This document shows positions 2,600 through 63,465 of a stretch of DNA of 64,000 nucleotides, piece by piece. The notes under the pieces were generated by a model. The model worked only from the letters and a program-made list of their open reading frames with translations. It was not told where the DNA came from and did not search any database. Both the position numbers and the translations under genes were made by a program. The stretch is taken from NCBI GenBank assembly GCA_958009085.1, contig OY253685.1, forward strand, positions 124,001 to 188,000, written 5' to 3'. The first letter of the stretch is position 1; every line of letters begins with the position of its first letter. The DNA is from Protoeuglena noctilucae. Lineage: Eukaryota.

Positions 2600-3314
2600 A
2601 TGGAGGGGACGGGTGGCGCGGGCCGCACCGCGGTCGCTGCAAGCGGGAGCGCCGAAGATTTTGAGGAGCAACACATCGAGCTGCGCCACCTGAGTACGGC
2701 TGCGGCGGCGAGGGAGCCCGACAAATGGCCGCGCACGCGCCTTTTCCAAAACTAGCCCAATCCCTCCTTGCCTCGCATGCGACGAGGTCACGCGAGCGTT
2801 CCAGACGACCAAGAAGCTGCAGCACGAGAACAGGGAGCTGCTCGGTCGCAAAAATGCGCTCGAACTCAACGGCGTCATGCATCGCGCAAAGGAGCTCCGT
2901 GCGGCCATCGCAGAGCTCGAGGAGAGGTGGGATGCCATAGGCGTGGCTTCAATAACCACGAGACACCTGCTGCGCACTTGACAGAGCGCGTTTGATGTGC
3001 CGCTGTGGCCTCAGGTCGGAGCATCTCGAAGGTACGCTGACGAAGGCCCTCCAGAGCGAGTACAACAACTTGTATCGAGAGCGCGGCGCCATCATCGACC
3101 AGCTGCGGCAGATGAAAGTCGACGCGGCGGAGAAGCACAGGGCAAGCGGCACGCACAGCCACGACGATGCTGGCAGCCGATGGACGACACGCTGCGCCTT
3201 GCGAGCCAGCAACTTCAAGCCTGAAGTTTCCTCTCCTTCCGCATTCAGGAAATCAGCGAGCAAATGGAACGCGCCTACGCCAGGCGAGTCGCCGAGGGAG
3301 CGGCGGAGGCGTGA
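2600..3314 (+). CDS. Small coiled-coil protein of unknown function (4 exons)
   Basis: Exons 2600-2707, 2805-2926, 3015-3141, 3249-3314 join in frame (MEGTGG...LRHLSTAAA/TTKKLQHENRELL...ELEER/SEHLEG...EKHR/EISEQMERAYARRVAEGAAEA*). The model needs GC donors at 2708 and 3142. Confidence 0.6.
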
Positions 3315-3325
3315 GCCGGGCGCGC

Positions 3326-6096
3326 CTAGTTGTCCGGAAGCGCCGTGCCCCTCTCCAGGTTCGCCTTGGTCTCCTTGGAATACTCCCCGTACGCCCGATC
3401 GAGGCGCGAGTTGAACTTGTCGTTGCGCCAGTTGATGGCGTCGACGTCGCGGCCCTCGCGGTGGGCGCGGTGGCGGTGGAAGACATCCCTGCGGCACAGG
3501 CAACGACGACTGACTGTGTATGAACAACGATCGATGGAGTAGGAGGGAAAGCGGCTGCGAAACTGCCAAGGCATGATGGAGCTGGGGGCAGCCTGCTGTG
3601 TGTGGCCTGTCGGACCCACGCGATGGCCGAGGTCCATGCCAAGCGCTTCAGCGGAAAAACTGCATCCGATGGCTCCCATCCCAATCCACCCTCCTCGCCT
3701 CTTCTTGTTCTGCGCGTCGAGCTCTGCCACCATGCGGTCGATGTTGGCCTCGGCCGTGGCGCTCGACCGCGCCTGCAGGGAGTCCTTCCCCGCGAAGAAG
3801 TGCGGGTCGCTGGCCTTGGCCCTCTCGTAATCCTCCTGCGAATGTGATGGCGCAGGTGGGAGGTCGGGCTGGCCAACACGCCAAGCAGGGTGCCGATACG
3901 CACATGCGTGAGAAGTGGAGCCTCAGGCGAAGGACTCTCCACATATATGCCTCGCGATCCGCATAGTTTAATCTGCATAGTTTAAGTTGCATAGTATCAT
4001 CGATTACTTGCCTTGGTATAGGGAATCCCCTGCACGCGCTTCTCGTACGCCCCCGCCACCCGCTGCACGCTGACCGACTCGAGGCCCTCCACGGCCGCCA
4101 GCTGCGAGGAGACGGGGCGAGTGACGGTGTCGGAACACAGCAAAGCTCGCCGGGCGCAATAATGTCCATTTAGCATGATGCAGACATGCTTCCCATGCAT
4201 GTCAGCGATGAGTGCATGAGTACATGTGACATCCACTCGACCGTCAACAACTCAGCCAACACGACACCTGGTTTGTGGCAACCTGGCAAACCAGTGAAGC
4301 CCACCACAAACTCTAGTCACCTTGGGTTTCTTGTTGGCCATGGCCTCCGCCAACTCCGCGGGCACCAGCCGAATCTCCTGCTCCTCCGACAGACCGTACG
4401 CCTTCAGTTCTCTCTCCTTCCGCTTCTGCTTCTCCAAGTGCCACTGGTATTTGGCGTCCTGCTCCACCTTCTCCTTGTCCGCCATGCGCTGCGGGGGACC
4501 ACGGCAGGCGATGTGTTATACGCAAGGCAGTCTGGTAAGGCCGCCGATACGACGCGAAAGCCATGCCCCGACTTATGAAGCACACTTGCTCAACAGATGC
4601 GCTAGCTTCTGCACCCGCCACTGCCTCACCTCAGCTGCGTCATAGTAGTACTATCCATCCATCAACATGCCCAATGCGCTTCCTCCCTCACCGCGTTGCG
4701 CCGGTGCTCGTCCACCACCGCCTTTTGATTGGCCTTGCGCGACAGCTGGGCCTTCTTGCGCAGCTCAGCCAGCTTCCGCTCCCGTGCGCTCATGCCCTCG
4801 TAAGGGTCTCTGCCCGACCCGCCCTCCTCCCCGTCGCCCTCCTGCCCCTCCCCTGCACCGTCCTCTGCCGCCCCCCGCCCGGCATCCACCCCACGCTCGC
4901 TCTCACCCTCCCTCGGCCCCGCCTCCGCCGCCGCTGCCGGCGCCTTCGCCTGCATTGGCGTGACGTGAGAAGGATCCCCCTCAGCAACAGACCAGGTGCC
5001 CACTGCATGCTTGTAAGCGTACCTTGCCACCATCACACAGCCCTCTACGCACCCGTCCCTCTCATCTGACTTCCCATATCACTCACCTGCCCCTCCAGCT
5101 CCTCCAGCTCCTCCTGTGCCGTCTTGGCGCCCTCGACGCGCTTCATCGGCTGCGACAATGCGCCCCCCGGCACCACCGCATACCCGGCCAGGCGAGCCGC
5201 GCGCTGCTTGGACAACTCGTCCACATTCAGCCCGATCGGGTCACTCCTGGGACATGGAAAACGACGACCGGGCTGTGGACTGTCAGTCGCAGTTATTGGA
5301 TACAGGCACAGCATACCTCATGGAGACATGCAACACAGCAAATGCCCCGTGTCGATGTCAGCTGCGTCATGCACCTGAATTTGTCTTCCTCCTCAATCTC
5401 CCGCAGCCTCTTCTCCACAAGCATCTTAGCGCGGCTGGGGAGCTCCCCGCAGTCCGACACGACCACCCTCTGCGAGGGTTTCCCCGACTTTGTGCCCACC
5501 GCCTCCATGCGCCGCACCACCGCCATGCCCTCCTCCACCCGCCCGAACACGACGTGCTTGTCGTTCAGCCAGGGGGCCTCGGCGGTCGTGATGAAGAACT
5601 GGCTGTTGTTGGTGTGAGGGCCCGCGTTGGCCATCGACAACAGGCCCGCCACGTCATGGCGCAGCGAGAAGTTCTCGTCGGGGAAGCGCGCGCCGTAAAT
5701 GCTCTCGCCGCCCGTGCCGTCCCCGTGCGTGATGTCGCCGCCCTGACACATGAACTTAGGAATGATGCGATGGAACACGCTGCCCTTAAAGTGCAGGGGC
5801 TTGCCCGCCCGGGTCTTCCGCTCGCCCGTGCAGAGCGCCCTGCGGAGACGGCGAGCAAGAAGCGCATCGCGCCTCCGCGGGGCGCACGATCGCGGGAAGG
5901 GCCGCGCGGGAGCGGGGCGCGTGCCGGCGCAGCGGACGCAGACTCGCCGGAAGTTCTCTGCGGTCTTCGGGCAGACGTCCTTGCGCAGCTCCATCACGAT
6001 CCTGCCAGCATCGCTGCCCCCGATCGAGATGTCGAAGAAGACGCGGGGGTTGTCGAGCGTCGCGTCGCCGACCGCGCTCCTCAACTCCTGGTCCAT
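3326..6096 (-). CDS. Cyclophilin-type peptidyl-prolyl isomerase fused to a C-terminal SYF2 splicing-factor domain (8 exons)
   Basis: Cyclophilin motifs: [66 protein letters not shown]. Spliced in frame (introns 5840-5947, 5247-5374, 4950-5086, 4489-4691, 4102-4320, 3836-4011, 3489-3698) to the SYF2 signature '[37 protein letters not shown]'. Confidence 0.88.
3960..3996. repeat. Short 14-bp-period tandem repeat (gcatagtttaa core, about 2.5 copies) in an intron
   Basis: gcatagtttaatct gcatagtttaagtt gcatagtat, inside intron 3836-4011. Confidence 0.8.
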
Positions 6097-6468: not shown

Positions 6469-7440
6469 ATGTCAGCGGCGTTGGTGCGCATTCCGACGCG
6501 ATGCGTCGCCCGTGGCCCCTTGCCTGACGCGGCGGGCCCGGGGCCCAAGAGCCTGCGCGCCGTGAACCTGGCGGGCGCATCTATCAGCGTGTCCTTGCAG
6601 AGCACGGCTGCGCTGGCGGCGTCCCAGTCTCCATCGACCGAGGAGCTGCAAGGCGTGTTCCCTGGCCCAGCACAGTCTCGCGCCGTGCGCCGCACTCAGG
6701 CTGTCCTTTGCTCCTCTGACGGTCTCAATGCGTGAAACCGTTTGTCAGCATTGCGGTCGACTGTTCCACGCCTCCGCAGGGGTAGATAGGGACGCGTGGG
6801 AGGCGAGCGTGGAGGCGGTCTCGAGCCTGGGCGTCGACGACGCGCCCCGGTGAGCCAAGGGGGCGGGCGAGGATTAGATGATATATGAGATACATATTGA
6901 AAGCTTTGGTGGTGCCCAGAATACCCAGAGCGGAGTGAAGGAAGCGTGACATTGCAACCCTCGCAGGGCGCTGCGCCGCGCCTTTGGCTGGTCCGGGCGG
7001 GCGTACTGGCGCAAGGAGCGGGAGACTCCCGAGGTTCCCACGGCTGCGCGCGTGCGCGAGGTGGTCACGTATCTGGAGACTGAGCTGGGCATGTCGCAAG
7101 ATGAGGTCCGGAGCATGGTGGAAGAGTTCCCAGAGGTCCTCGGGTTGTCAGTGGAGGGGCGAATGAAGGCCAACGTGGCACAGCTGGAGAGTCAGTGGAA
7201 GATGTCGATCCCAGGTGCGTGCTGGCGAGGTAGTGCGGGGATGCAGTGGGTGGTCTCCCTGGGTAGGAGAGCTGTGGGGCACGAGGGGTGGCTGTGCATA
7301 GGCTGAGGGAGCGGCACCGTGCTGTATGCTTCGCAGTGATCAAGGGCGTGCTGTTGAGGAGGCCCGAGGTGCTCGGATACAACATTGACTGCCTGGGCGA
7401 CTGTGCGGGGGAGTGCAACCGATGCTGGGTGCGCTTTTGA
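6469..7440 (+). CDS. Small organelle-targeted mTERF-like protein with Cys-rich C-terminus (4 exons)
   Basis: Exons 6469-6652, 6780-6849, 6967-7214, 7337-7440. Transit-peptide-like N-terminus, AFGWSGRAYWR, mTERF-like repeats (MVEEFPEVLGLSVE; LLRRPEVLGYNI), and ending DCLGDCAGECNRCWVRF*. Confidence 0.7.
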
Positions 7441-13629: not shown

Positions 13630-15324
13630 ATGGCCCTCGCCGGGGCCGCTGTCCGGCTGCGCCGGAGCCTGCTGTATATGCCGGCCCTGTCGGACAAGAT
13701 GGTCCACAAAGCGGTGACGGAGATTCATCCGGGTGAGCGCCGCGAGCAAAGCAAGCTGGATTCTTTCAGGGCACAAGGCTCTGGAGCGCTCCCCACCGCA
13801 CCATGGCCGCTCGAGACCCGCTCACGTTCTAGCTTACATCACAAAGATTGCTCATCGTTGCTTGGATGGCCCCGATCGGGTCTGAGGAGCGCGCGCACGC
13901 CCCGTGAGCTCTCGCGTTGGTTGCGCCCAAATAATGCCATCTGTCGTGCGCAGATGTGGTTTGCATGGACTGCGAGGACAGCGTGGAGGAGAGTCGGAAG
14001 GGGGAGGCCCGGGAGCAAGTCGTCCGGCACCTTGCCGGGCTCGACTTTGGCCACAGCGAGGCGAGCTTGCTTCTCCGCGACTCTCGCTGCAGCCCGCGAC
14101 TCTCTCCCTCCCGCTCGCGTAATAGCTCGCCTCTCCATCGCTCGTCGCAGGCTGCTGTGCGCATCAACGCCGTGGATGCCGAGGCGTGCCTCCCAGACCT
14201 GGAGGCGGTGCTCAGCGGCCCGCGACTGCCGGACGCGATTGTCTGTCCCAAGCTGGACACCGTCGACCACGTGCGGTGGGTCTACGACCGCGCGGGAGCC
14301 ATCCTGGCCAAACGGGGACCTGAGGAGGCGCGGGCGGGGCCGGGGACGGCAGCTGCCGGTCCGCACACAGGGCATGTGCCAGGCGGGGAAGGGTCGCCGC
14401 GCGTGACGCTGATCGGGATGTGCGAGTCGGCGGGTGGTTTGCTTGCGTTGCCGGAGATCCTCAAGTGGGCTTCGGGCCACGCCCAAAGCAGCCCCGGGCA
14501 CCCCATGGGGCCCATCTCGGCGTTCATTCTCGGTGGCGACGACTTCGCATCCACCATCATGGCCACGAGGCGAGACGCAAATTTGCATGAGACGCCACGT
14601 TGATGCGTCTTTGCTGTTAAATACTAATGTCACTGCGGCCCTGGTAGGAGGTGTGCCTTGCGAGGGCAAGGGAATGCAGCTGTGCAAGGGTCGCAAGTTT
14701 GTATCCTCACGTGCTTTGTGCGTTTCTAATCGTCGCAGGAGCAAGGGCAACACGGAGCTGTTGTGGGCCCGGCAGGCCTTCGTGGTCTCGTGCCGAGCCT
14801 ACCACGTCCAGCCCATCGACATCGTTAACATTGATTACGCATCCGCGGACCAGACGCCACTGGAGCACGAGTGCCGGCAGGTGGGGATGTGCCGATTGGT
14901 TGCTGGTGTGTAATGGTGCCTTGTTTGGACAGACCAACCAACACCCAGTGCATCCGTGTACGCATGGCCCAACGTGCCCATCCGTCAGTGCAGGGCAGCA
15001 TAGAGTACAAATAGTATGCACAAACAGTGCATTTACGTACGTACATCATCCCATCCGCTCCCACCCACGCAGGGCGCCCTGTTCGGTTTCGAGGGCAAGC
15101 AGTGCATCCACCCCAAGCAGGTGCCGATCGTCAACCGCCTCTTCCTGCCACCGCCCGACCGCCTCGCATGGGCGGAGTCGGTGGTAAAGGCACACTCTGT
15201 GCACTCCGAAAAGGGCACTGGGGCCTTCGCGTGGCACGGGCGGATGATCGACGCGCCAACCGTCAAGCTCGCACGGCAGCTGCTGGAGAGGGCGCAGGCG
15301 GGGGGGGTGCGGGAGGCGGACTGA
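13630..15324 (+). CDS. Citrate lyase beta-like / CitE-HpcH family lyase (CLYBL-like)
   Basis: RRSLLYMP, DCEDSV, VRIN, CPK, MCES, LGGDDF, ELLWARQ, IDIV, GFEGKQCIHPKQV, GRMIDAP. Four introns, two with GC donors (14061, 14570). Confidence 0.9.
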
Positions 15325-15495: not shown

Positions 15496-18296
15496 CTAGC
15501 TCCCCGGCGGGGGCCCAGGGGCAGGGAACCACTGTGCCGGCCGCGGCTGTGCAGCCCCATTGCCGCCTTGCCCGCCCCCAGGCGCCGCCCACCCAGCCCC
15601 GGGCGCCACCCCGCCACCCCCCGCCCACCCCGCACCCTGCCAGCCCCCCGCTGTCGTCCACCCCTGCCCCTGCATGCCCCCACCCGCCCACCCATCGCCC
15701 CCCGTGGTCCACCCACCCCCCGACCCCTGTGCCCCTGCACCCCTGCCACCCCCACGCCCACCCCCGCCTCCGCCTTGTCCCCAAGCAGGCGGCCCTGCAT
15801 AAACGGCCCCGCTTGGCGCCGCACCCCACGCGAACCCCTGCCCAGCGCCATGCATGGGCACAGGAGCCCCCATGCCTTGGGGTCCGTATGCGGGGTGGCC
15901 CTGGCCGGGAGCACCGGGCATATGCATGGGCATACCCGGGTGGAACGCCCCGGGGGGCATATCTTGACCCGGGCCCCTGCAGCGACAGCACGAGGGCAGC
16001 GGAGAGTGTCGCTTTCCGTAACCATGCATGGCGTCAAAGGGTTCATAGCTGCGAGGTTCACGCACCCGATCACGACGCCGGCCATCTGCCCCGCTGCCAG
16101 GTGCGCTTGCGCCTGCACGCCCCCCGCCTGCACGTAGCCGCCCCTGACCCACTCGCTGCCTGGGACACCCGGTCCCCCCGGGCCGCCCCGTCCCCTTCCC
16201 CGACCTCTGGCCCCGCGCCGCCCACCACCCCCACCACCCCTGTCACCCCCACCTCTCCCCTGGTGGCCAGATGCATCTGCGCCCCTGTCGTCGTCCCCGC
16301 CCTCCCCACGCCGCTTCCTGCAGGAAGGTGAGCATGGCACGTTCGAAAACATGAGGCATTATGGGGCTGGGAGGCTGCCACACCCCCTTGTGCCACGCAT
16401 TGCCCTCTCTACCCCATCAACACCGACCCCGTTCCTCACCCTCTCTTCCCACGCATTGCTCTCTCCGCCTCGTCATCAGACGCCTCCTGCTGCTCGGGCG
16501 GCAACTCCTCGTCGTCCTTCCCGGACGCATCGTAGCCCTGCAATGCCACGACAGCTTGACACATCTCATTCACGCCAGTCCGGCTTCCTAATCATCACAA
16601 ATCACTTATGACCATCACTGCACTGCGCCAGCCCCTGCTTCCCTGTTCCACCACCGCCACCCCCGATGACCCACCTTGCTGTAGTACTTCTCCGGCACCA
16701 GAAATTCCGCCGTGCGCCTGACGCAGAAGACCTCCGCGCCGGGTGCGCACGGACTGGGTGTGGCTTTATTGGCAGGCGCGCCCGGTGCAGCATCGGCAGC
16801 ATCGGCATCGTTCGGTGATGGCTCCCCTCCCTCGGCAGGGAGGGGGCGGAATGAGTAGAAAGGTGCGCTGATGGGGCCAAAGACTTCCTGCGACACAGCA
16901 GGGAGGAAGAGAGCAAGGTCGTTACTAGTCACGAAAGGCGACGTCGTGGCAAGTGTGACTGGTCCTCACCTCAACGCGCCCCACCGCCACCCTCGGCTGC
17001 TTCAGGCACAGCACGGTGCCTTCCCCGATGGGCGGGCACTTCCCGTGCGCGTGCACCACCACGACGCCGTCGATGACCGCAGACACGGCACCCACGGACA
17101 CCAACTCGTCCTCGGGGCGCACATGCTCGTCATCTGCATGGCAGGAAGCGAAGTGGGTTGAGCAAGGTGGGTTGAGCATAAGTGCAGAGGGAAAGGTTTT
17201 GTGTGGGTTCTCAGAGTGACAGTGAGAGACGGGCAGCAGGGTCCATGCCATCATGACCCCGCACCTGTCAGTGGGACCACGGGCGGGGGTTGCACCATCT
17301 CATTCTTTGTCCGCGGCGGCTGCCCCGCGTCCGCGTCGTCCTCGTCGGAGCCCCCCTCCACCATGGCCTGCAACAAGAGGGTGAGGCTCAGGAACTGAGA
17401 GAGACTGCCCATGTGCCATCACACGACGAGCGCACCGGCATGCGAACACTGTGTATTGCCGATGCTTCCGATCATCGTCCCAATCTCCGCTGCTCACCCA
17501 GAAGCGCGACTTGTCCTGGAAATTGACGTCGTCGCTGGAAGAGCTGGACGTCTCGTCCGAGGAACTGGGCGCCTGGCTGTCCGTCTCCGCCTCAGCCTCG
17601 TCCCCTGCCGCGACCTCCTGGCCCGCACGCGCTGCAGGGGGCTCCTCCGCGTCGTTTTCTTTCATCTCAACTTCAGAGGCGTTCATTGCTGCGTCTGCAA
17701 CGCCCTCCGTCGCCGCGGGACCCTCGGTCGCGGGGCCCTCGTCTGGTCTTGACAGCTCGGCCCTTTCCGGAGGGGAGGAGGACGCGTCCGACGACGAATC
17801 GGACCCTGAAGACGTGTCCGTGGAAGAAGGGTCCGCCTCCGCTGCCACATGCAGTCGCGGCGCCGTCGCCTCCCCGCCGGCGTGCGTGCCCACAACCGCT
17901 GCCACAGAGGGGCCCGCATGGACTTCCTGCGATGGTACGACGATATTCATGATGTCGTACACATGGATGGCGCACAAGCAGGCTCCATAAGCGCGGCAGG
18001 AGCGGCTACGGGACGTCGACGGGCCAACGACAGGTGCGCCGCCGGGAGCGTTCTTCTGTCGCCCAAAACGGCGGCCACCGCATGCATCCGTGTCGTTATA
18101 CTGCACTCTGGAGAATGTGCTATCCAAAGCGCATCATCATCACCGCAAGCGGCGCGAAAAGCACCTGCTCCTCAGGAGGCAGAAGTCCGCTCTCCTTCAT
18201 CGCCTGCAGCGTCTCTAAAGCAGCACGACGCGCGATCTCCACGTCAGAAATCATTTCATCCTGCTCAGGAGACGCAGTGTCCCCAGGCGCCGCCAT
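15496..18296 (-). CDS. NAF1: H/ACA RNP assembly factor NAF1
   Basis: Acidic Ser-rich N-terminus, Gar1/Naf1 domain (VGAVSAVIDGVVVV...GEGTVLC...VGRVE/EVFGPISAPFY), GYDASGKDDEE...SDDE motif, RGG and Pro/Gly tail. First exon inferred as MAAPGDT...PPEEQ from 18296. Confidence 0.85.
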
Positions 18297-18516
18297 GGCC
18301 GGCAAGCGCTGTTGATGCCCACGCAGTGTGCACCACTGAGCAAGCAAATTGCGGTGATTAAGGCAGCGATGGATGGCGTGGGGGTTCTGCCGTCCTTGCA
18401 TGAGGACAGGAGACTCATCAGGACTGTCACGGCATGCATGCATGTCAGGCAGCTCGTTTCACCACTGGTACAGCTCACATCGGAGGAACTATGCTAACAT
18501 CACAGAGTCATTGGAG

Positions 18517-26983: not shown

Positions 26984-27128
26984 GGCGCTCTGGTGGGCGT
27001 TGTCGGCTGTCTTGATAGGTGCGACAGTACAGCTGCTGGCAGCCATGGCGTGGCGGTACGACGCGACAGCCGTCAAGAGACTTTCCGTGATTTTGAAACA
27101 ATGGCGACAACCAACGCCACAAAGCGGC

Positions 27129-46590: not shown

Positions 46591-47590
46591 ATGAGCGAGG
46601 AGGAGGTGTCGACAGCGCCTGAGGTGGAAGCTGAGGACGCCCCGAAGAAGACGCTGCTGGTCGTGAAGTACCATCCCATCACGGGCATTCCTGAGGAGTT
46701 CAATGACTACCTGCCCAAGGACACGGAAGAGTACAAGCGCTTGAAGGCGCACCAGGTGCGGCGGCCATGGGCCCCCAGACAGCGCCGCGGCAATAGGTCC
46801 GCCGCTTCCGGGATCTCACCCGACGGACGCTGGTGTCGTCGTGCAGGAGGCGTCCACGGCCGGCGACGGAAAGGCCAAGGGCGACGCCAAGGAGGGCGTG
46901 GAGAAGGACTTGGTCCCCGGCGTGGACAATCTCAACGTGGACGAGGCGCCCAAGGAATCTAAGGTGCGAGATAGGTTTTTTGATGCCATCGCTTTATGTT
47001 GGCAATTTGCTGGCCAAGCGCCGAGCACATGTTGATCGCCGGCGGGCGCGCGTTGGTGTCTGCAGTCCAAGAGCAAGAAGGCGAAGCCCCGGGAGGTCTT
47101 GGTGAAGGTGGAGCAGCGCAAGGGCAAGAAGATGACTACGATCGTCACCGGACTGGATCTCTTCGGCCTCAAACCCGCCGACTGCGCCAAGGTCTTCAAG
47201 AAGAAGTTCGCGTGTGGGTCGGGCGTGTCCAAGAACGCGGAGGGGAAGGACGAGATTGAAATCCAGGCGAGACGCTGCGAATTGTGATTGTGCGAAGGGC
47301 TCTTTGTCGCTGTGTCGTGGACAGCTGCGCCAATCTTCGGCCCTTGGCACCGCAGGGGAGCTTCATGGAGGACGTGGGGGCGCTCGCGGTGAAGGAGTGG
47401 GCTGCGAACGACGTGCGGGAGGAGAACATCTTCTTTGTCGTGAACAAGGTGAGCGCATGCGGATGTCGCAATTGCCACACATGTGCTTGTGTGCAAAGGG
47501 TGAACAGGTAGCTAATTTGGCACTGCTTGCACTTGCGACTCGCAGAAGAAGGTGGCGATGCGGGACTACGCGGGGGAGGACTCCGACTAA
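46591..47590 (+). CDS. DENR: Density-regulated protein DENR/Tma22 (SUI1 domain)
   Basis: VKYHPITGIPEEFNDY, RKGKKMTTIVTGLDLFG...AKVFKKKFACGSGVSKNAEGKDEIEIQ/GS. Four introns, one GC-AG (47267-47355). Confidence 0.9.
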
Positions 47591-50800: not shown

Positions 50801-51817
50801 CCGAGGCGAGGTCGTACCCGCTGGGGTAATCGCCCATGTCGATCAGCTTCGGGATCACGTCCCCGCGCTCCTGCGCGCACGCACGGGGCCGTGGCTCAGG
50901 GCAGCGAGGGCTGAAAAGTACAGGCCACGTGCTGGCTGCCAGTGAGCAGAGCACGTACGCAGCTAGTCAGTGAGAGCAGTCACGTGTGCAGCTGAGTCCC
51001 TTCACCGACCCCATCACCCACAGACACCCTCTCGCCTTCAGCTGCTGGCACAGCTTCTGCGCAATCTCCTTGCTGAACCCATACTCCGTCCCGAACGCGA
51101 CGCAGACGGGGAGACCCTTGTCTGGCAGCCCCGCCAGCAACGGGTCCGATGGCCGCTGCCTCTCCGCTGCGTCCCCGCCCTGGGCCCCCGCCCCGGCGTC
51201 CTTCAAAAACGTCCCGAACGACTGCGGCAGGGCGGGGGGCGTGTCGACAGCGCTCGGTTACAGGCCGGTCACAGGTTGCACTTGCAGCCGCGCGTCGCCA
51301 CTCACGGTCGAGTCGTATTTCTTCTTCTTGGGGGCGTCCGGGAGCGGGAGCGGCTTGCGGAGGAAGCCCCCGAAGTCTTGCGGGTCCTGGAGATTCCCCT
51401 TGAAGGGATCGGAGGACGATGAGCGGCGGGGGGCGAGGGACCACAGCAACAGCAAGGCGCCGCCTGCAGGGGTCGGGGCCGCGGGGACATGGCCGGGCGC
51501 AGGGCGCGTGGGACGCGCGTGGCGCATGGTGCTTTTCCTGCTCAAGCGCGCGGGCCCCGGGCGCGGCGCGACGCGAGCCCTCGCGCGCGGTTCCGGCGGA
51601 GGCAGTGGCCCCACGTTCGGAAAGCGAGCTGCGCGCCGCGGGCGGGGCGCGCGGGGCTGCCGGCGCGCGCGCGGCTAGGAACGCGCGCGTTCCGCCGCTG
51701 CGCCGACGCGCTCCCTCTCGCACGGCCCAGGCGGCCCGCGATTGGCCACGCACCTGTTGCCACTGCTGTCCGTGTCCAACTCCACGAGCCGTCACGATCT
51801 CGCAGCAGCGACCGCAT
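47845..51817 (-). CDS. NADPH-dependent diflavin (FMN/FAD) oxidoreductase, CPR/CysJ family, with predicted N-terminal membrane anchor
   Basis: Flavodoxin motifs FGTEYGFSKEIA, STQGDG, LALGDRNYEHF. FAD/NADP motifs LQPRMYSISSS, GVCSTY, MVGPGTGLAPFRSF, LYFGCR, KVYVQD, YVCGDA, RYQRDVWF*. Intron 51464-51753 joins WSWTRTAVAT to GGALLLLWSL. Confidence 0.88.
49239..49325 (-). repeat. Coding 15-bp tandem repeat, six copies of xxNGH
   Basis: TNGHVANGHATNGHAANGHAANGHVANGH in the exon seen as ORF 49137-49346. Confidence 0.9.
50596..50630 (-). repeat. (CCTCA)n pentanucleotide repeat in the branch-point zone of an intron
   Basis: ggtga x6 on the + strand, 20-50 nt upstream of the 3' splice site at about 50575 of the - strand reductase gene. 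Confidence 0.85.
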
Positions 51818-52315: not shown

Positions 52316-54815
52316 ATGGACGGGGCAATTCCTGCCGGCACCGGGGCGAGGAGTGGGGCGGGCCCAGAGGCGGAGTGGGCGATCGCGGAGGATGAAGTGG
52401 AGCTGGGCGCGTTGCTGGGGCGGGGCGGGCAGGGCGAGGTGTTCCGGGGCCGATGGAAGGGGCGTGACGGTGCCGTGGCGGTCAAGCGGCTGGACGCGGA
52501 CATGATCGGCATGGTGGAGGGGTCGGAAAAGGAGGCGCTGGAGCGGGGACGGGAGTAGCTGCGGCGGATCGCGGCGGCATGCCAGGGCTGCAAGCACCTG
52601 TGCCCGTGAGTGCGCGTGCAGCGGCTGTGACTGTCCGTGGGCGTGGCTAGTTCCGCGTGGGCCGGCTTGCTGACGCGTCGGGAGAGGCAGGGAGCGTCGG
52701 GCATTGCGCGTCAGTGCTGCTGTGGAGTGAGGTCTTCTTACCTCACTCGGCATGGCTGCCCTTGTGATATGCAGGGTGCTGGGCGTCTGATGCGAGGTGG
52801 ACAGTTGCACGTCGTCATGCCGCTGTACGAGAGGGGGTCGTTGGCGCGGCGGGTCGCGGAGCGTGGGGCGGGGCTGCGTGCGGAGGAGGTGGCGGTGCAG
52901 GTGCTGGGGGGTCTGGCGGAGCTGCACGAGCGCGGGGTGGTGCACCGGGACGTGAGGCCGGGGAACGTGCTGGTGGAGGAGGGGGGCGGGGCGGTGGTGG
53001 CGGACTACGGGCTGGCGACGGTGGCGGAGAGGATGGGGGCGCCGGTGAGAGAGCGTGCATGTGTGTGGGAGCATGGGTGTGGAACGGCGCATGTCAGTGA
53101 GCGCGCGGCTGACGGTTGTGTTTGCACATGTGACCCGCAGCCGAGCGGGCGGGGTGGCGCGGGGCGTGCGGGGGCGGGCAGCGCGCCGTACCTGCGCCCG
53201 AGGAGTGGGATTCGGAGCTGGGGGCGCCGACGGCGGCGTCGGACGCGTACGCGGCGGCGGCGACGCTGTGTTTCGCGGCTTTGGGGCAGGCGCTGTTCGG
53301 GGCGAAGAGCGTGCCGCAGATCATGGCGGACGTAGTGATGCTGGGGCGGTTCCCGGAGGTGCCGGCGTCGGTGCCGGAGCCGCTGCGGTCGGCGGTGCGG
53401 GGGGCACTGGTCAAGCACCCGGTGAGCGGACGGGGGTGGCGGACATGCTGCGGGCGGCGAGGGAGAGCCGGTGAGGGGCGGGCGGGGAGCGTGGTGGCTC
53501 GGTGTTGTTGTTGGTGTGGCACGTGGGCAGGTGCAGCAAGGTAGTGGCGCACCTTCGTGATGTGGCTGTGTGCAGGGATGGACTGGCGGGCGTGGCGAGG
53601 GTGCAGCGGGGGCTGGCGGCCGTGAGCATGGCGGAGGAGTGGACGGAGGGGTGGTGGGTGGCGCTGGTGTGCGTGCTGGGACAGCCGAGCGAGGTGCGGC
53701 GGAGGGCGGCGTGGGAGGCGGTGGCGGGGACGGCGGTGACGGGGGCCGCGAGGCTGGAGTGGGCGGAGGTGGAGGCGAGGGTGCGGGCGGTGGAGACGAG
53801 GCTGGTGGGGTCAGCAGGGGCGTTGGGCGCAGGCGGGGCTGTGAGAGTGTGGACGGAGGAAGAGGTGGTGGAGACCGCGGCGAGGGGCGGAGAGGTGGAC
53901 CTGGGGGGAATGGAAGTCGAGCTGACACGCGTGGTGGTGGTGAAGGGCGTAAACAAGGCGGCGACGATCCGCAATGGGACGCTGCGGGTGTCGACCGTGA
54001 ACGCTGAGATGGGGAATGGGCTTGCTCTGGTGGTCGAAAACGGTGGCGGGCTGCGTCTGGAGTGCATGCGGGTGGTGGGGACCGGGGTGTCGTGCAAGGG
54101 GGGGGGGCGAGTGACGCTGGTGGACACGCACCTGACGGACGCACCTATGTTGGGCGTGGCATCTGTGAACGCTGGAAGCAAGGTGGTGGTGCATCGAGGG
54201 TGCATAGCAGGGGCCATGAAGTATCACGGGGTGTTCTGCGGGAAAGGCGGGCAGGTGGAGCTGGTGGACGTGGAGATCGCCGACTGCAAGAACTCTGGTG
54301 TGGTCAGCGTTGGCCAGGGCAGCAAGGTGGTCATGCAGGGGGGCCGCATCACGGGGTCCAAGGAGGAACACGGGGTGGGGTGCCAAGAGGGCGGGCAGGT
54401 GGAGTTGCGGGGCGTGGAGGTCGCCGATTGCAAGGGATGTGGCGTGGTCAGCCTCGGGCAGGGCAGCAAGGTGGTCATGCGGGGGGGCTGCATTACGGGG
54501 TCCAAGGAGGAACACGGGGTGGGGTGCAAAATGGGGGGATATGTGGAGCTGCGGGATGTGGAGGTAGCCGACTGCAAGATGAGTGGCGTAATCAGCCAAA
54601 GCCAGGGCAGCAAGGCGGTCATGCAGGGGGGCTGCATCACGGGGTGTAAGGAGGGTTTTGGGCTCGGCTGCCGTGAAGGCGGGCATGCGGAGGTGCGGGA
54701 TGTGGTTATTCGTGACTGCAACCGTCACGGCCTGTACTGCGACAGTGTCAGCACCCTCCGTCACAGCGGGTGCACCGTGTCGGGGTGTGGGTTGGGGTCC
54801 CAGGACGGCTGCTGA
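52316..54815 (+). pseudogene. Ser/Thr kinase (TKL-like) fused to a right-handed beta-helix repeat domain; disrupted (pseudogene or assembly errors)
   Basis: LGRGGQGEVFRGRW, VAVK, HRDVRPGN, DYGLA, (A)PE, SDAY motifs. In-frame TAG at 52556-52558 and apparent 1-nt deletions at about 52789, 53194 and 53420. The last exon, 53576-54815, is open. Confidence 0.8.
54174..54750 (+). repeat. Coding 144-bp (48-aa) tandem repeat, about 4 copies, parallel beta-helix type
   Basis: cagggcagcaagg recurs at 54315, 54459 and 54603. Unit: GSKVVMQGGxITGSKEEHGVGCxxGGxVELRxVEVADCKxxGVVSxGQ. Confidence 0.92.
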
Positions 54816-55925: not shown

Positions 55926-58900
55926 ATGCCGCCGCGCCCGTCCACCGACACTAACGAGAGGGTGGCGAATCGAGCGCAGCCGCCGGCGGGCGCCGAGTTG
56001 ATGCGCTCCCGCGCTCAGCCCTTTGGGTGCCGGTACGCTGAGCTCGTCCGCCGCGTGCAGGCGACGATCCCAGGTGCGGTGGGCGTGGTCATCGCGTGCT
56101 GTGATTTTTTGCCTTCGGCCCAGCCGCGGCCGCCGTTTGCATGCCTGCGAGTCGTTGAAACCCAATCACGTCCGGCGCAGAGCCCTCGCTCGCGGAGATC
56201 GCCGCGCATCTGCACGCCCTCGCATTGCTGCTCCCGGAGGAGGCATGGTTGACACCCGCATGCAGCGATCCCCAGATGCCCACGTGGCGTGGCCCCGGCG
56301 CGACATTCTTCGGCACGCCGCTCGTGGGCGCGCCCCTGTCCGCGTTCGGAGATCGTATGCCCGCCGCGTGCCCCCGGCACGTCTGGCAGCTCACTCTTCA
56401 CCTCAGGTAATGGTCGGCGGCCGCAGCGGGCGCCCTTTGCCCTGTGTGCGCCGTCGCGGTCTGCAGCATTGCGCTCGCGCCTTTCTGGCCCCGCGCGAAT
56501 CCCGCGCGCCGCTCCCCGCCCGCAGCGAGGCAAGCAAATCTTCTTTATCCCTAGCATCCGTCGCCGGCTCCCTCGAGTGGATCGAGGCCTGCATTTGCAG
56601 CGATTACTTGTCGTGGGAGTGGGCCTACGGTGCCCGCCGGCGCTTCCTCGCCCGCTTGGCGCAGGCCGCGGGGCCTAGGGAGATTCGCCGTGCGCTCCTG
56701 CAGCTGCTGATGCAGGGCCTGGACGTGGACAAGCTCGCGTCGCTGGTGGGCGGGCGGCCAAAGCAGCGACGCTGGGCTCCATTTTGTTCGCGCTCACGCC
56801 GCGGCGACCGGCTCCCCCTCCCTTGCGGCGCAGGAGGCAGCGGTGCGGCAGCCCTGGGCGGCAGCGTCGCTTGCGACGCCCTACGGCCGGCTGTCGTGGT
56901 CGGAGCGGTGGTACCGAGCCGGCATGTGGCTCATTTGGGTGGCCGAGACGACCAGCTGGCTCTGCGTGGCCACGCAGCAGCCGCAGGCGAGGGGCTGGGT
57001 GGTTTGGCACTCTGTGATGCACAGTGACTCCATGCATGGGCCACAGCACAGTCTGTGCGCGCCACGCATGGCAATGGCAGTGCACTCTGCCACCTCCGCC
57101 CCCTCGCGCGTCCCTGCCCACCCGGTTCCCTGTCATTCCCGTCCCGCAGTGGTGGCAGGCGTGGAAGTCGGCGATCGAGTCATCCACGGCCACCCACGAC
57201 CTGGCCGGCCTGAAGCGGTGCGTGCGTGACCTGGCCCACGAGTGCCGCCACGTCATGGACGACAGGCGAGTGGTCGACGAGGGCCACGCTGCCACGGTGT
57301 CTTGTTGCGAAGTGCTGGCGCACCAAGACATGGTCACGTACCACGCTGCCACGGTGCATGATGACGATGGGATCGGGTGCCATGACATGATAGCGCACCG
57401 TACCGTCACAAATCGTGCTCTCTTGAGACAAAAGACGCCTCAGTACAGGCAGTTCCATTGCCGCTGTTACTCAACTCATGCCCTCTGCGACTGCAGTTGG
57501 GCGGCGGTGGAGCCCCGGTGGACGCAGGCGCTGTCGGAGTGCCAGGGGCCCATCAGGCGAGGGGCGGGGACAGATATGGATTGCAATGAGAACTGGCTTG
57601 TTTGTCATTCATCACCACGCAGCCTGCATATTGCGCTACGCACCCCACATCTCACCTTTCATGTCACCTCCGCCGCTCACCCCACCAACCACCCACCGCT
57701 CCCCCAGGCTGGGCCACTTGGTCAAGAAGCTCTTCGCCCACAAGATCCCCGCATCTTCGTCCTCCTCCTCCTCCCCGTCTGAATCCGACGACTCTGACAG
57801 CGACGACGAGAGCGGGAGCGGGAGCGAGAGCGACCGGGACCAGGCGGGGTCAGAGGGGACGCCATCGGTGTCCGTGGAGCCGTCCGAGGCTGCGAGGTGG
57901 GAGGAGCTGGACAGCACGGCGCCTGTGGAGCACCACGGAGCGCTGCGTGGTGCGGCGGGGTCACTGGGGGGCTCCAATGCGCAGTCGGGGTCGTCGAGTC
58001 CAAGAGAGGCCAAGCGGCGGGGAGCAGGGGCGCAGGCGCGGGGTAGCAAGCAAAGACGGGGCCCGCCGGGGCGCGGGGCGGGGTCTGGGGCGTCCGGGTC
58101 GGGTGCGGGTGCGGGGGCGGGGGCGGGCGAGGGGTTCCGTGCGGGAGCGGAGGGGACCGAGGGCGACAGCGGGACGACGGATGAGCGGGAGTGGGCGCGG
58201 GGGCGGGGCGGGTCGCCGCGGCGGTGGGTGGACGGGGCGTTTGCGGTGGCGCCCGGTCCAAAGAGGCGCGGCAGTGGCAGCGGTACCCAAGGGGGCGGGG
58301 TGAAGCGGGGCCGGGGTGGGGGGGAGGGGCGGGGGGCCGGGGAGGGTCGCAAGCGCGTGCGGGGGGTGCGGAGGGGTGGTGGCGGGGCGGGGCAGGAAGG
58401 GGCGCGGAAGGGGCGGCAGGAATGGGACGCAGGGTGGTGGCTCGATGGGCTGGTGCCGGAGCGGCCTGACAGGTGCGTGGGTGCTTGAGAGGGCACACGC
58501 TTACAGCCTCACTGCCACCTCCAGCGCCACCCCCACTGCCACCCTCACCCTTGCCATCTCACCGCAGTGACGACGAGGTCGATGACCCCTCGGAGCCCTG
58601 GGCCCGCGAAGACCCCGCGGACCTCATCGCCACCCCAAAACATGAGTCAATGCACCCATCCCTGCCACAGCACCCATCCCAGCGCCCCTCGTCCCTCACT
58701 GCGTCGCCCGCCAATGGTCGTGCGGACAGTCGATTAGACGATCAATGCCAACCCCAGTCCGACTGCCTCCCCACGGCCTTCTACCTCTGGCAGCCCGGGG
58801 TGGAGGCGTCCGTGTCCGTGACGCACCCTAAGGCCGGGTTCGAGTCGTATGTGGTGATGGGGGAGGCCGTGGGGAAGGCGGTGGCCAAGGCGGCAAATGA

Positions 58901-61782
58901 GGCGCTGTTGGGGCTGAGGAGATCGAGGGTGAGTGGGGTGGGAGTGGCAGTGTGAGGGTGTAAGGATGAGGGTGAGCGAGTGAGTTTGTACGTGACCTAT
59001 CAATAGTCAACAGTCATTGACGTCAGTCCTCGCTTCGGATGTGCCTGCACTCTCATAATACCCCACTCACTACTCCCATCTATCGACATCTACAGCTCCC
59101 CCTCGTCGCCCCAGTTGAGCTACGCACCCCACGGCCTGCTCTACACCCCTGAGCCCTCGGACCCATTCACGGCGTCGCTGGTGGCGCAGCTGCTGGAGAA
59201 GGAAATCCAGGCGCCGAGGAGGGTCACGGCTGATGCGGCCGCGAGGGGCGGGCGGGGCGGCGCGCGGTGAGGGGTGGGGTAGCATGAGGGGTGGGGTGGG
59301 CCACTGTGCGGGAAGTGCTGTGACATCAGTGGCGGGAGGTCTGATGTGATGTGGATACGAGAACTGTCACAACGAGTGCTAGTGCTGAGTGCAGTGACAG
59401 CAACAGGTAGAGTAACTGATTGCAAACGTGGCCTTTTTCTGTGGTCAATCAATCAGTCATGTCTCTTGTCGCCTCAGTCGCGGCTGGCCCAATGCCGAGG
59501 ATCTGGCCAGGCACAGGCGGGGTTGCGAAAGAGATGGTGATGACGGGCGGTGGGAGGGGGCGTGTGAGGGGGCGAGTGGCAGCGACGGAGGGGAGGGGTG
59601 CGAGGGGTGCGAGGGTTGTGAGTGGTGCGGGGGTGACAACTGGGCAAAGGGGGGATCGTGGAGGGGCGAGCCGGGCGTGGAGCAGGGCGTGAGCTCGATA
59701 TGGTGAGAGGAGACTGGTCGGTGGGGGTGGTTATGGGTTCGATCCTCACGGGTCCCCTGCTGTGACATTGCATTATCAGCTGATATTGCTTTATCCTCCT
59801 CTCCCCCGCAGCGTCGTGGTCGACTGCGTGGCAGAGGACGGACCGGAGGCCACCTCTCGCGACATGGGACACACAGCCACAGCCACTGCCACTGCAAACA
59901 CTGCCACCACTAACACTGCCAAGGCCACTGCCACCGCCAACGCTGCCACCGCGATTGTTACTGCAAACACAGCCACTCCCACCAACCCCGCCACCCTTGC
60001 CACCCCCCCTCCCATCCAAGGCTACCTCCGCACCGTCGCCCGCCCCCGCCTTCTGATCGACGACCGCGTGCCCCCCAGCCGACGCCTCCCTCGCCTCTCC
60101 GACCCCCTCGGCGACTTCGAGTGTTTCTGCACCCCCAACTCCGTCATTGGGCAGAGACTGTTCAACGCCTACCGTCGCGCGAGGGGGGTGGCAGATGCGC
60201 CCACCGCCTCGGCCCCGTGCCTCTGGGCGGCCGTGGCGATGCTCGGGGGCTTCATCCCCTGGCGGCTGAGGGTGGAGAGGGTGCCGGGGAAGGGGCTGGG
60301 GTGCGTGGCGAGGTGAGGGGCGGGAGCGGGGGTGGGTGGGGGTGTGGGCGAGGAGGAGTGGTGTGTGAGATGGCATCACGCGGGCTTACCCCGTAAGAGC
60401 AGGTAGCAGGTAGCAATCAAGCAAGCGTCGACAAATTCATAGCGATTCTTATCTGCATCGCAGGGAGTTGATCCCTGAGGGGTCGATTGTGGTGGAGTAT
60501 GTGGGGGAGCTGGTGACGGAATCAGGGGCGCATCTGCGGCAGCACGGGTGGGGGAAGAGGTGAGGGATGCGGGGGTGGGGAGTGGGGCTATTACTCGTCT
60601 CTCTCTCTTGTCTGTCTCAACCCATCTCCCCCACCATCTCTCTCACCTCTCACCCATCTCGCCCACCCATCTCCCTCACCGTCCCATCCTGACCCCCCGT
60701 CCCTCCGCTCCCCCCAGGGGCAACGGCAACCGCCGCTTAGACCACTCCAACCACTTCACCCTCCAGATCCGCAAGATGGGCACCAAGATCCCCAAATGCT
60801 TCGTGCTGCACGACGTCAAGTGCCGCGCCGTGACCGACCCCACCGTGCGGGGGAACGTGGCAAGGCTCATCAACCACAGGCGAGACGTGGCTAGCATAGT
60901 TATTGCTAGTAACTAGGCTTTGTAAGTAACTAGGCTCATCAACCACACAGGTACAAGCAACCCCAGCCCACGCCTCCGTCCCCGCACCACTCATTCTCCC
61001 ACCCCATGTCACCCCGCAGTCAGTCAACAGACCCTACGCCTAAGCTATGTACCCTCAAAATACGCAGTTCCATCATCTCCCCCGCAGCTGCGACGGTGGC
61101 AACCTGGAGGTCTGCGAGCTCGGCCCCTGTCAGCGTGCTTTGGCTTCCCTCACCCAGCTCAAGCCCCCCACATGGCTGTGGCGGTCGGGGTGCCACGGCT
61201 GGGCGCCCCCGGACCCCTCGGGAGCGATGGGCGGTGAGGGGGCAAGGAGCAGCGGTGGGGGTTGAGATGAGGGGTGCATGGTGGGGTTGCAATGGGTGCA
61301 GTGGGGGTGAATCACTGCTGTAAGTTGTATATCTTAGACTCTGTATAAGATATGAAGTCACTCACTGCCCTTTCATCTCCCCCCAGACCGCCGCCTTCTT
61401 TGGGAGGACGCCCCCCGGCCGAGCTGGCTGGGTCAGTGGCTGCCCCGATTGGTGCTGATGGCCAAACGTGACATCTACCCGGGAGAGGAGCTCACGTATG
61501 ACTACAACATGTTCGGGGACCGGGAGAACCGGTGAGCAGAGACGGGGGCGATGGACGTGGTTCGCAAGTCACAAACATGAGCATCTGCGTGGGATGGGTT
61601 GTGCAACCGATCTCTTGCGCTGAGCCACCGGCTGCGCGGTTGGCTGCGATGCATGGCATTGCAAGTGAGCGAGTGAGCTCTTTGACTTGCACATGTGGCT
61701 GCGTGTCTCTTGCACCTGCAGGGGTGCGTACTTCAAGCGGTGCCTGTGCCGGTCCGCCAAGTGCCAGCAGACCATCGCATGA
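55926..61782 (+). CDS. SET-domain lysine methyltransferase with post-SET cysteines and N-terminal Trp-rich helical (WHIM/WSD-like) modules
   Basis: GKGLGCVAR/ELIPEGSIVVEYVGELV, GNVARLINH/SCDGGN, KRDIYPGEELTYDY, CLCRSAKC. Linkage of the N-terminal exons to the SET exons is inferred from orientation and splice sites. Confidence 0.8.
59868..60010 (+). repeat. Coding Ala/Thr low-complexity tract (gccact-type repeats)
   Basis: TATATATANTATTNTAKATATANAATAIVTANTATPTNPATLAT in ORF 59762-60316. Confidence 0.8.
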
Positions 61783-62085
61783 GTCGCCCAGGCAGTGACT
61801 GAGCTGTCAGCTTGCGGCTAAGTAGCCAGATTGTTGTACAAGAGTCAGCTTGTGGCTGACCGAGCCGTCGACCGAGCCATCGGGACGACGTTGCCGCGTC
61901 GTGTCAAACTCGCGCCCATGTTCATGCAGTAGCATGCATACAGAATTGTCCACTGAAGCTACTACGCGCGTGCGTGAATGAAGGATCACCTAAAGCAAAA
62001 GCCACAAGACCACGATGTTGTACTCCGACACTGGCGGTGCTGACACTGTCATGTGCAAGTGTAGGAGACCTCAACCCAACCTTCA

Positions 62086-63465
62086 TCAAACACCTCCCCT
62101 GGCCTGCCGCATCGCCTGCCTCGCGTAGATGGCACCGGACCAGGCCGTGGTGCCCACCGCTGCCCATGACAGGCCTTGCACGGTCACTTCGAGTGTAGCG
62201 ACGCACGACTGGGGGTCGCCCCACGCCACAGCCCACCACTGCAGTGCGGGAGAGGGGGCTGCGGTGCAACATTAGGCTCGGCCTTGCAGTTGCCCACGCC
62301 CACGCTCTGTGCAGCAGCCTCACCTCCCCCGCTTGTGCAGCACACTGGCCCAGGGCCGCCGCTCCCAGCGCCAGCTGCAGGCACGTGTTGACCTTGCTGA
62401 CCAGGTGGGGCTCGACGCGACGGGCGGCAGTACCACTCGCCTGGTCCCTCCCACCACTGCCACCACTGCTGCCACCACTGCCACCCTCACCCCTCTCACC
62501 GCCGCCCTTACCGCCCCCGACCCTCCCAGCCCCCTGCGCCCCCCGCAGCGCAGCGTCCACTTCAAAGAACGCTCGCCACCCGCGCCACCTGCCCCCCAGC
62601 TCCGCGTGCCGCAGGGCCAGGGCCCCGAGGACCAGCCCCGTGTCCCTCGCCAGAAACGCCCCCACCGCCCACCCCGGGAGCAGCCCGTGGTGCAGCAGGC
62701 CCATCGCCGTGCCCGCCACCAGCGCCTTGTCCGCGAGGGGATCCAGATACGTGCCCAGCGTCGACTCGAGACGATACCTGCGGGAGGATAGGATACAGCG
62801 CCATGCAGCACGTGGCGTAATCACCCAAATGGCTGGCATGCGTCACCATCGACACCACAGGGCCGATATGCAGGTCCTCGTTTTGCTTATTGCAAAACCG
62901 TCTCGCCTGCGAGCCAAGTAGCCGTCCAGCCAATCGGAAGCACCCGAGATGACCAGGCAGGCGGCAGCAGGGGTCCAGTGCTCCGTGGCGATGAGCCAGA
63001 AGATCCCCGGCGAGGACGCCAAGCGCGCCTGCGAGTTGCAAACAAGGCTCAGGCGCTGCAGACACGCGGAAGCAATCGCTGCAGACAGAGTGCTGCAACA
63101 GCTGCCCGCCGTATGCCTCACCAGCGACACGAGGTTGGGTGCCTGCAACAGCTCGTCCAGCGCAGTCAACCTCCGCGATGTGCAGAATCCTCTGCGCGCG
63201 ACAGTCCATCGATCGCGGCCGCGACAGTGCGCGGAAACGGAGCGGTCGCCGCTCCATATGCTGCATCGTCTGAATCCAGCCGACTGCGAGCACTAGAGGA
63301 CTGATGCCGGGAGCTGAAGAAGCTACATGCTCTTAACGTTCCCCTGAAAGCGAAGTGAAACGACAAATCCATTCCAAATGCATAACTTCATGCCTCATGA
63401 CGACGGCCCAGACTGCACGCGCTGCTGGCCGCTTCGCACCCTTCCCCCGGCCTCCGCGAGGCCAT
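62086..63465 (-). CDS. CDP-alcohol phosphatidyltransferase, cardiolipin synthase-like
   Basis: PNLVSL/AR, SDWLDGYLARR, LGTYLDPLADK, ARD, PHLVSKVNTCLQL, TTAWSGAIY, and a presequence-like RRGFCTSRRL. GC donor at 62906. The first exon and start are uncertain. Confidence 0.82.

Follow-up and report, generated by a model that had tools for sequence, protein, structure and literature searches.

Introns that begin with GC and end with AG make up about 1% of human U2-type introns; the C at donor position +2 does not pair with U1 snRNA, and elsewhere the consensus of GC 5' splice sites is stronger on average (PMC3167603; Kralovicova et al. 2011). Much higher shares are reported for several GC-rich algae. 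In the green alga Micromonas pusilla CCMP1545, which has about one intron per gene, GC donors account for 25.6% of all introns, for 43.5% of introner-element introns and for 9.7% of the regular ones, and 79% of the GC donors lie inside D-IE1 elements; they were largely missed by GT-only predictors and recovered by RNA-seq (PMC4815162; van Baren et al. 2016). In Emiliania huxleyi, 56-65% of donors are GC, as confirmed by expressed sequence tags, RNA-seq and reverse-transcription PCR, and the authors attributed the shift to genome GC content and found GT-biased models to be wrong (PMC4028052; Feldmesser et al. 2014). The pelagophytes Aureococcus and Pelagomonas have 14-17% predicted GC-AG introns, also attributed to GC content, compared with 0.32% in a low-GC relative (preprint 10.1101/2024.10.30.620910). 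Finally, in a survey of 121 plant genomes, it is the GC-rich green algae that are conspicuous for their major non-canonical sites (PMC6310983; Pucker and Brockington 2018). Here we report on the introns of a 64,000-nucleotide stretch of Protoeuglena noctilucae DNA (contig OY253685.1, positions 124,001 to 188,000, hereafter the window), for which an earlier note, made from the sequence, had claimed an extremely high frequency of GC-AG introns. The phenomenon itself is therefore already published for other GC-rich algae. In our models of the window, 24 of 121 introns carry a solid GC donor, and we consider it likely that these are ordinary U2-type introns of a GC-rich (65% G+C) alga in which a C at +2 is offset by perfect pairing of the remaining donor with U1 under a GC-biased pressure.

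The most direct evidence came from RNA. A single study of marine metatranscriptomes supplied four runs (X1-X4), representing at most three samples, that contain 37-44% of the sampled words of positions 26500-36499, and their assembled contigs were aligned to positions 22000-41999 of the window. We worked with 15 of the 38 RNA splice joints, selected by support and not by donor type, each of which was seen in all four runs, in a single contig per run. Twelve were GT-AG (minus-strand genes show this type as CT..AC on the plus strand) and three were GC-AG. With a true rate of 1%, at least three GC-AG joints among 15 would have a probability of 0.0004, and with a rate of 2% a probability of 0.003, in keeping with the claim that the frequency here is far above 1%. 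Together with two introns of a histone deacetylase (HDAC) gene, five GC-AG introns are backed by RNA:

27600..27695, minus strand: GC-AG intron of the uL13 gene (cag/GCGAGT); RNA joint 27599>27696, CT..GC on the plus strand
29646..29733, plus strand: GC-AG intron of the eIF6 gene (cag/GCGAGG); RNA joint 29642>29731, Pfam eIF-6 positions 171 and 173 on its two sides
30479..30634, minus strand: GC-AG intron of a DUF1997 gene (cag/GCGAGG); RNA joint 30478>30635, CT..GC
32366..32473, plus strand: first GC-AG intron of the HDAC gene (gag/GCGAGG); RNA pieces stop at 32363
32552..32633, plus strand: second GC-AG intron of the HDAC gene (aag/GCGAGG); RNA pieces begin at 32632

The contigs of all four runs skip 27600-27695, 29646-29733 and 30479-30634, which are thus absent from mature RNA; for the remaining GC introns, homology or gene models point to the same absence. 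The eIF6 joint was printed as CA..TG with four ambiguous letters, and a G[TC]..AG pair appears only at a shift of +3, where it reads GC..AG with the donor at 29646. The resulting spliced protein has 245 residues, which is the length of green-algal eIF6, and is colinear with these proteins. Both HDAC joints lie outside the 15 listed, but the ends of the RNA pieces fit donors 32366 and 32552 given a two-letter AG ambiguity, and Pfam Hist_deacetyl positions are continuous within about one across the second intron. Elsewhere in the HDAC gene, one contig of run X4 links 32965 to 33189 with ten other letters between them, at a place where an intron was modelled at 32975-33187; the contig may stem from a strain variant or reflect another splice form.

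Seven further GC-AG introns were fixed by homology:

3489..3698, minus strand: GC-AG intron in the SYF2 part of a cyclophilin-SYF2 locus (gag/GCGAGG); Pfam SYF2 positions 108 and 112 on its two sides, with a split codon and two residues between
5840..5947, minus strand: GC-AG intron in the cyclophilin part of the same locus (ccg/GCGAGT); read-through alignment to solved cyclophilins
14061..14150, plus strand: GC-AG intron of a CitE-like gene (gag/GCGAGC); alignment to homologues P0002 and P0003 gap-free across the junction
14570..14738, plus strand: GC-AG intron of the same CitE-like gene (gag/GCGAGA); gap-free homologue alignment, Pfam HpcH_HpaI continuous
22306..22519, plus strand: GC-AG intron of a TTLL gene (cag/GCGAGC); Pfam TTL positions 45 and 47 on its two sides with a split codon between, no GT alternative
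39114..39201, minus strand: GC-AG intron of a mitochondrial bL19 (bL19m) gene (cag/GCGAGG); chains 7pkt_n and 8a22_An, no GT alternative
62778..62906, minus strand: GC-AG intron of the CLS gene, encoding a CDP-alcohol phosphatidyltransferase (cag/GCGAGA); Pfam CDP-OH_P_transf positions 50 and 53 on its two sides

Because the reading frame stays open through the intron claimed at 5947, the cyclophilin read-through translation could be used in the search of solved structures. In the three alignments that we examined (143 chains matched), it fell into two aligned blocks separated by 36 unmatched residues. Removal of exactly this stretch is possible by a GC..AG placement only, as no GT..AG pair gives an equal join. 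At donor 14570, no frame-compatible GT alternative was found within 45 nucleotides. The exons beside donor 39201 are continuous within two residues in two mitochondrial bL19 chains, and at donor 62906 a split codon and one residue lie between the flanking Pfam positions, with no GT alternative. Pfam continuity of the same kind was seen across GT junctions (for example TTL 141 to 143 and L13 65 to 68).

We considered whether the GC donors might be artefacts produced by misplaced junctions, by sequencing errors at +2 or by RNA from a related organism. Some calls leave room for this, since eight of the 20 donors listed in the earlier note and seven weak GC calls come from models, and among the weak calls are GT alternatives of equal quality. 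For the phenomenon as a whole, such an origin is highly improbable: the RNA pieces showed no differing letters from the window over hundreds of bases, the three RNA joints have no GT..AG placement within their ambiguity range, the seven homology-based junctions are fixed to the residue or within two residues, and the DNA runs X5-X8, possibly as source data, hold all sampled words of 26500-36499. The use of nearby GT donors by spliced RNA, which would have spoken against GC-AG splicing, was thus not seen at these three joints. Of the 20 donors named in the earlier note, the 12 with independent support are 27695, 29646, 30634, 32366 and 32552 (RNA) and 3698, 5947, 14061, 14570, 22306, 39201 and 62906 (homology); none was refuted. 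The other eight (4011, 6653, 39779, 47267, 56987, 57266, 57557 and 60880) come from models and are among the 12 predicted introns that complete the solid set:

3836..4011, minus strand: predicted GC-AG intron in the SYF2 part of the cyclophilin-SYF2 locus (aag/GCAAGT); gene model
6653..6779, plus strand: predicted GC-AG intron of an mTERF gene (aag/GCGTGT, a weak motif); gene model, in one run only
18261..18609, minus strand: predicted GC-AG intron of a coiled-coil gene (ggg/GCGAGG); gene model
39627..39779, minus strand: predicted GC-AG intron after exon 1 of the bL19m gene (cag/GCAAGC); hand model keeping the frame open
45799..45966, minus strand: predicted GC-AG intron of a second coiled-coil gene (aag/GCGAGC); gene model
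47267..47355, plus strand: predicted GC-AG intron of the DENR gene (cag/GCGAGA); gene model
50871..51035, minus strand: predicted GC-AG intron of a CPR-like reductase gene (aag/GCGAGA); gene model
53457..53575, plus strand: predicted GC-AG intron of a kinase/beta-helix gene (gcg/GCGAGG); gene model
56987..57149, plus strand: predicted GC-AG intron of a SET-domain gene (cag/GCGAGG); gene model
57266..57496, plus strand: predicted GC-AG intron of the SET-domain gene (cag/GCGAGT); gene model
57557..57707, plus strand: predicted GC-AG intron of the SET-domain gene (cag/GCGAGG); gene model
60880..61087, plus strand: predicted GC-AG intron of the SET-domain gene (cag/GCGAGA); gene model, join restoring ..NH/SC..

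Several of these predictions are accompanied by further observations. The exon downstream of donor 4011 aligns from its first residue to residues 464-509 of chain 8xi2_M. Donor 39779 was not chosen by the gene finder; RNA depth is present there and the joint lies outside the 15 listed. In the DENR gene, the SUI1 domain reaches the last residue of the upstream exon, and the downstream exon codes only in the modelled frame. The ..NH/SC.. motif restored at donor 60880 is one that we take to be typical of SET domains, and the exons at this donor gave, on their own, no Pfam or PDB match. SET donors 56987, 57266 and 57557 are predicted from the model because the N-terminal part of the gene is without homologues: a search with its 254-residue exon (57708-58472, plus strand) against 1.84 billion cluster representatives returned only the window's own open reading frame, so that the N-terminal half of the SET gene appears, at the level of sequence, to be orphan. 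Short exons of DENR, SET and SYF2, used one at a time as queries against solved structures, gave no match.

The window-wide tally was obtained with our own dynamic-programming gene finder, in which GT and GC donors were treated identically. Codon usage was taken from Pfam-matched stretches, donor and acceptor matrices from the 17 RNA-backed introns (12 GT and 5 GC), and penalties and strand segments were set by hand. The finder recovered 16 of these 17 introns exactly and gave the seventeenth the right donor and a wrong acceptor. Four hand edits were then made (the RNA acceptor, the bL19 model, one Tfb4 intron and the cyclophilin-SYF2 join), and the edited set holds 121 introns, comprising 90 with GT, 24 with solid GC and 7 with weak GC donors. 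The GC share is thus 20% (24/121), at most 26% with the weak calls and at least 10% from the 12 independently supported introns. The weak donors 9039, 9542, 38196, 51293, 51518, 58629 and 59859 were set aside for their weak motifs and, in several cases, an equal GT alternative. The estimate in the earlier note of about 25 GC donors agrees well with the 24 solid ones, and its 13 GC among 39 introns of conserved-family genes became 13 of 37 on recounting. As the remaining genes have only 11 GC donors in 84 introns, that conserved-gene sample was enriched in GC; the contrast may reflect gene choice, model error in poorly conserved genes or a link with expression level.

The gene finder was also run with GT donors only. 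The score fell from 1825.4 to 1622.6, a loss of 203 units, all five RNA-backed GC introns were mis-modelled, the DENR gene fell into two parts and the CLS model was truncated. The prediction that GT-only gene finders would mis-annotate this DNA was therefore borne out.

We sought to characterize the donors themselves. Eighteen of the 24 solid GC donors read AG/GCGAG, two AG/GCAAG, three CG/GCGAG or GG/GCGAG and one AG/GCGTG, so that the description of most donors as AG/GCGAG or AG/GCAAG applies to 20 of 24. GT donors were looser, with GTGAG, GTGCG, GTGAC, GTGGG and GTGTG after AG, CG, GG or TG. At position +3, G was found in 97% of the GT and 87% of the GC donors, and the donor consensus is therefore GTGAG/GCGAG and not GTAAG; AGGTAAG occurs twice in the window. 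In a census that depends on the models, AGGCGAG is a modelled donor at 18 of its 35 occurrences and AGGTGAG at 17 of 35, while AGGCGCG and AGGCGGG, which are common inside exons, are never modelled donors. U12-type donors have the consensus /RTATCCTT. None of the 24 solid GC introns has ATCC at +3 to +6, and all start with GCGAG, GCAAG or GCGTG. With a GC start, an AG end and an AG/GYRAG donor that is stricter than that of the GT introns, they look like ordinary U2-type introns.

Consensus matches were counted at positions -2, -1, +3, +4 and +5. Among RNA-backed donors, all five GC donors are perfect at these positions, compared with two of 12 GT donors (Fisher p = 0.0034). In the full set, five matches were found for 20 GC and 18 GT donors, giving a GC share of 53% among the 38 perfect donors, and four matches for 6 GC and 57 GT donors. 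GC and GT introns did not differ in acceptor strength, pyrimidine tract or intron length, and the compensation therefore sits in the donor itself. The C/(C+T) ratio of intron interiors is 0.58; as the 53% share lies close to it, the ratio of T to C at +2 in a perfect context is about what composition alone would give.

These findings suggested the following mechanism. A C at +2 would still be mismatched to U1 snRNA and would be tolerated only where all other pairs of the helix are intact. At such donors, T and C would be nearly neutral with respect to each other, and GC-biased mutation or fixation would set their ratio, whereas at donors with an imperfect consensus T would be kept by selection. 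The GC-AG introns lie in unrelated housekeeping genes. Of the two kinds of cause that the earlier note had proposed, T-to-C pressure at donors fits these data (20 of 38 perfect donors are GC, and interiors are at 0.58), while a U1 that pairs with the C fits poorly and is unlikely, since a better consensus is required at GC than at GT donors.

A change in the splicing machinery (U1 or U6 snRNA, U1C or Prp8) could nevertheless act in a different way, with +2 read less strictly and GC recognised nearly like GT. Among perfect-consensus donors, GC is indeed as common as GT (20 and 18), and the GC share among comparable donors in animals or plants is far lower. Moreover, unrelated GC-rich algae reach 14-65% GC donors in the figures reported for them (PMC4028052, preprint 10.1101/2024.10.30.620910, PMC4815162), and the tolerance of +2 therefore varies between lineages. 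We regard such a change as unlikely here in view of the stricter consensus at GC donors, seen with the RNA-backed introns and again in the scarcity of GC donors that have one mismatch, which is the pattern expected if a base pair is still lost through a C at +2. A related reading, which we put forward tentatively and rate as somewhat less doubtful than altered machinery, is that +2 is effectively neutral wherever the donor otherwise pairs perfectly, so that GC drifts toward the genome's C/(C+T) (53% compared with 58%). The lineage would then have the richest GC-AG set yet seen among ordinary non-mobile introns in green plants, and would point to a lineage-specific loosening of spliceosomal +2 proofreading beyond mutation bias.

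In Micromonas pusilla CCMP1545, also a marine green alga of 65% G+C with 25.6% GC donors (PMC4815162), most of these donors lie within mobile elements, which raised the possibility that introner elements carrying a GC donor had spread them here as well. Four GC donors of the window do have eight letters in common (GCGAGACG). When the 121 introns were compared with one another by BLAST (E <= 0.001), however, four weak hits appeared, which form two reciprocal pairs and no family; the longest match was 63 bases at 75% identity, and the interiors of the GC introns are unrelated. The intron sequences are unique and the GC-AG introns are therefore not copies of mobile introns. As the window also has about five introns per gene and not about one, spread by introner elements has very little left to recommend it.

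Selection might instead maintain GC donors as weak sites that serve regulated splicing, alternative splicing or the retention of introns. GC donors are over-represented among alternatively spliced introns in human, nematode and Arabidopsis (PMC2490688, PMC3167603), and in E. huxleyi they are accompanied by high intron retention (PMC4028052). In the window, the GC donors occur in housekeeping genes (uL13, eIF6, HDAC, bL19m and cyclophilin-SYF2), and the spliced form was assembled in all four runs, although contigs cannot quantify retention. We therefore judge selection for regulated splicing to be a poor candidate, if a slightly better one than mobile elements or artefact.

Compensation by U1 pairing under GC-biased pressure thus remains the explanation that we favour, and several points weigh against it. 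The data come from one 64-kb window, and the genome-wide share may differ. The RNA consists of assembled contigs of one metatranscriptome study, with 15 of 38 joints listed. The consensus comparison in the full set is partly circular because the matrices were trained on the 17 RNA-backed introns; the comparison within that RNA subset (n=17) is free of this. Half of the solid GC donors (12/24) and 12 of the 20 listed ones have independent support, the rest being models, and the difference between conserved-family and other genes (13/37 against 11/84) may itself come from gene choice or model errors. That mutation is GC-biased is something we infer from the composition of this window. Lastly, a GC share of 53% among perfect donors may exceed what mutation bias yields in other eukaryotes, in which case lineage-specific relaxation may contribute.

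The cyclophilin and SYF2 exons (3326-6096, minus strand), which the earlier note had treated as two genes, probably form one. The joined model has eight exons and an open frame of 528 codons, and both parts match a single chain, 8xi2_M (563 residues), the cyclophilin part at residues 1-187 and one SYF2 exon at residues 464-509. This chain belongs to the C* spliceosome of Chlamydomonas reinhardtii (PMC11833078). The joined frame and the shared match argue against a division into two genes.

The window has a G+C content of 63-68% throughout its 64 kb and carries densely packed, intron-rich eukaryotic genes with about five introns each. Genes were placed by Pfam scans of open reading frames across the window, including the following:

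3.3-6.1 kb, minus strand: SYF2 and cyclophilin, by Pfam
13.9-15.3 kb, plus strand: CitE/HpcH, by Pfam
21.8-24.3 kb, plus strand: TTLL, by Pfam

The same scans placed genes for mTERF, a TPR protein, a GT8-like transferase, uL13, eIF6, a DUF1997 protein, an RPD3-type HDAC, bL19, Tfb4, DENR/SUI1, a CPR-like reductase, a kinase/beta-helix protein, a SET-domain protein and a CDP-alcohol phosphatidyltransferase. No Rfam family (at the gathering score) and no tRNA gene was found in the window. Compared with its homologues, the CitE-like protein carries two insertions of low complexity (within 14151-14569, plus strand), and the true N-terminal exons of its gene seem to lie upstream of the model. One insertion coincides with a possible extra in-frame intron at 14328-14456, which was left uncounted for its poor ends (GCGCGG...GGAG). 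RNA contigs also cover 25762-26089 and 26235-26842, with a loose end at 26050 common to three runs; the gene finder gave no coding model on either strand of 25762-26842, and the transcript may be untranslated region or non-coding. At 34673-37340 no RNA depth was present in any of the four runs, and a weak minus-strand gene model lies at 36963-38207. A 30-letter loose end of run X2 at 39282 had no match in the window.

Protein comparisons place the host near the green algae. The best named matches of the eIF6 exon were Pedinophyceae sp. YPF-701 (88%), three Tetraselmis (85-86%) and Chlorella and Micractinium (85%). No Micromonas protein was among the named entries of its best 120 matches, so the host differs from that alga; for full-length eIF6, Chlorella sorokiniana was closest (84.5%). 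The named matches of the Tfb4 exon were Chlorellaceae only, the best at 56% identity over full coverage. Three protein searches for near-identical spliced proteins that would fix the junctions found none, and a protein Atlas search returned bacterial and viral beta-helix clusters only. Judged from these matches, the host looks like a chlorophyte green alga that has no close sequenced relative in the collections searched. An assignment to E. huxleyi was discarded in view of the green-algal eIF6 matches at 85-88% and the lack of any near-identical protein, and pico-prasinophytes were discarded for their scarcity of introns (PMC13213038). Nephroselmis pyriformis (64.2% GC, 0.27 genes per kb; PMC12718437), a pedinophyte with 70% GC and Auxenochlorella (5.1 introns per gene; PMC12636532) agree with the window in part of its features.

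If the window is representative, GT-only annotation of this genome would leave a large part of its genes truncated or split, as happened to the first gene sets of E. huxleyi and M. pusilla (PMC4028052, PMC4815162). With the window, the few GC-rich, GC-donor-rich algae would be joined by a green alga that has many introns and no introner elements, which strengthens the case that base-composition pressure, without mobile introns, is enough for the turnover of GT to GC donors. It also offers a system in which the fitness cost of a C at +2 could be measured as a function of U1 complementarity.

In the literature on GC-AG introns in green algae, we found no intron-rich species with unique introns at such a level, although subscription papers and the supplements of genome papers may hold one. 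Like the other GC-rich algae of this group, the window, albeit a single one, combines a G+C content within the range of around 63-70% with a GC-donor share above 10% confirmed by transcripts. Major non-canonical shares computed from the table of the plant survey are 8.5% for Ostreococcus tauri, 7.0% for Micractinium conductrix, 5.7% for Chlorella sorokiniana and 5.6% for M. pusilla, figures that depend on annotation and pool GC-AG with AT-AC introns, and all are below the share in the window (PMC6310983). Compared with human GC-AG introns, those of the window have the same donor and acceptor ends, the same mismatch to U1 and the same stronger consensus, at a frequency roughly twenty times higher. 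With Aureococcus and Pelagomonas the window shares a GC-rich genome and a raised GC-AG share, but these pelagophytes are stramenopiles with 0.1-0.9 introns per gene, and their figures come from predictions. E. huxleyi is likewise a marine alga of 65% G+C; it is, however, a haptophyte with 56-65% GC donors, whereas the window has about 20% and its best named protein matches are green algae. M. pusilla CCMP1545 is a marine green alga of about 65% G+C with many GC donors, from which the window differs in that its introns are unique sequences and number about five per gene.

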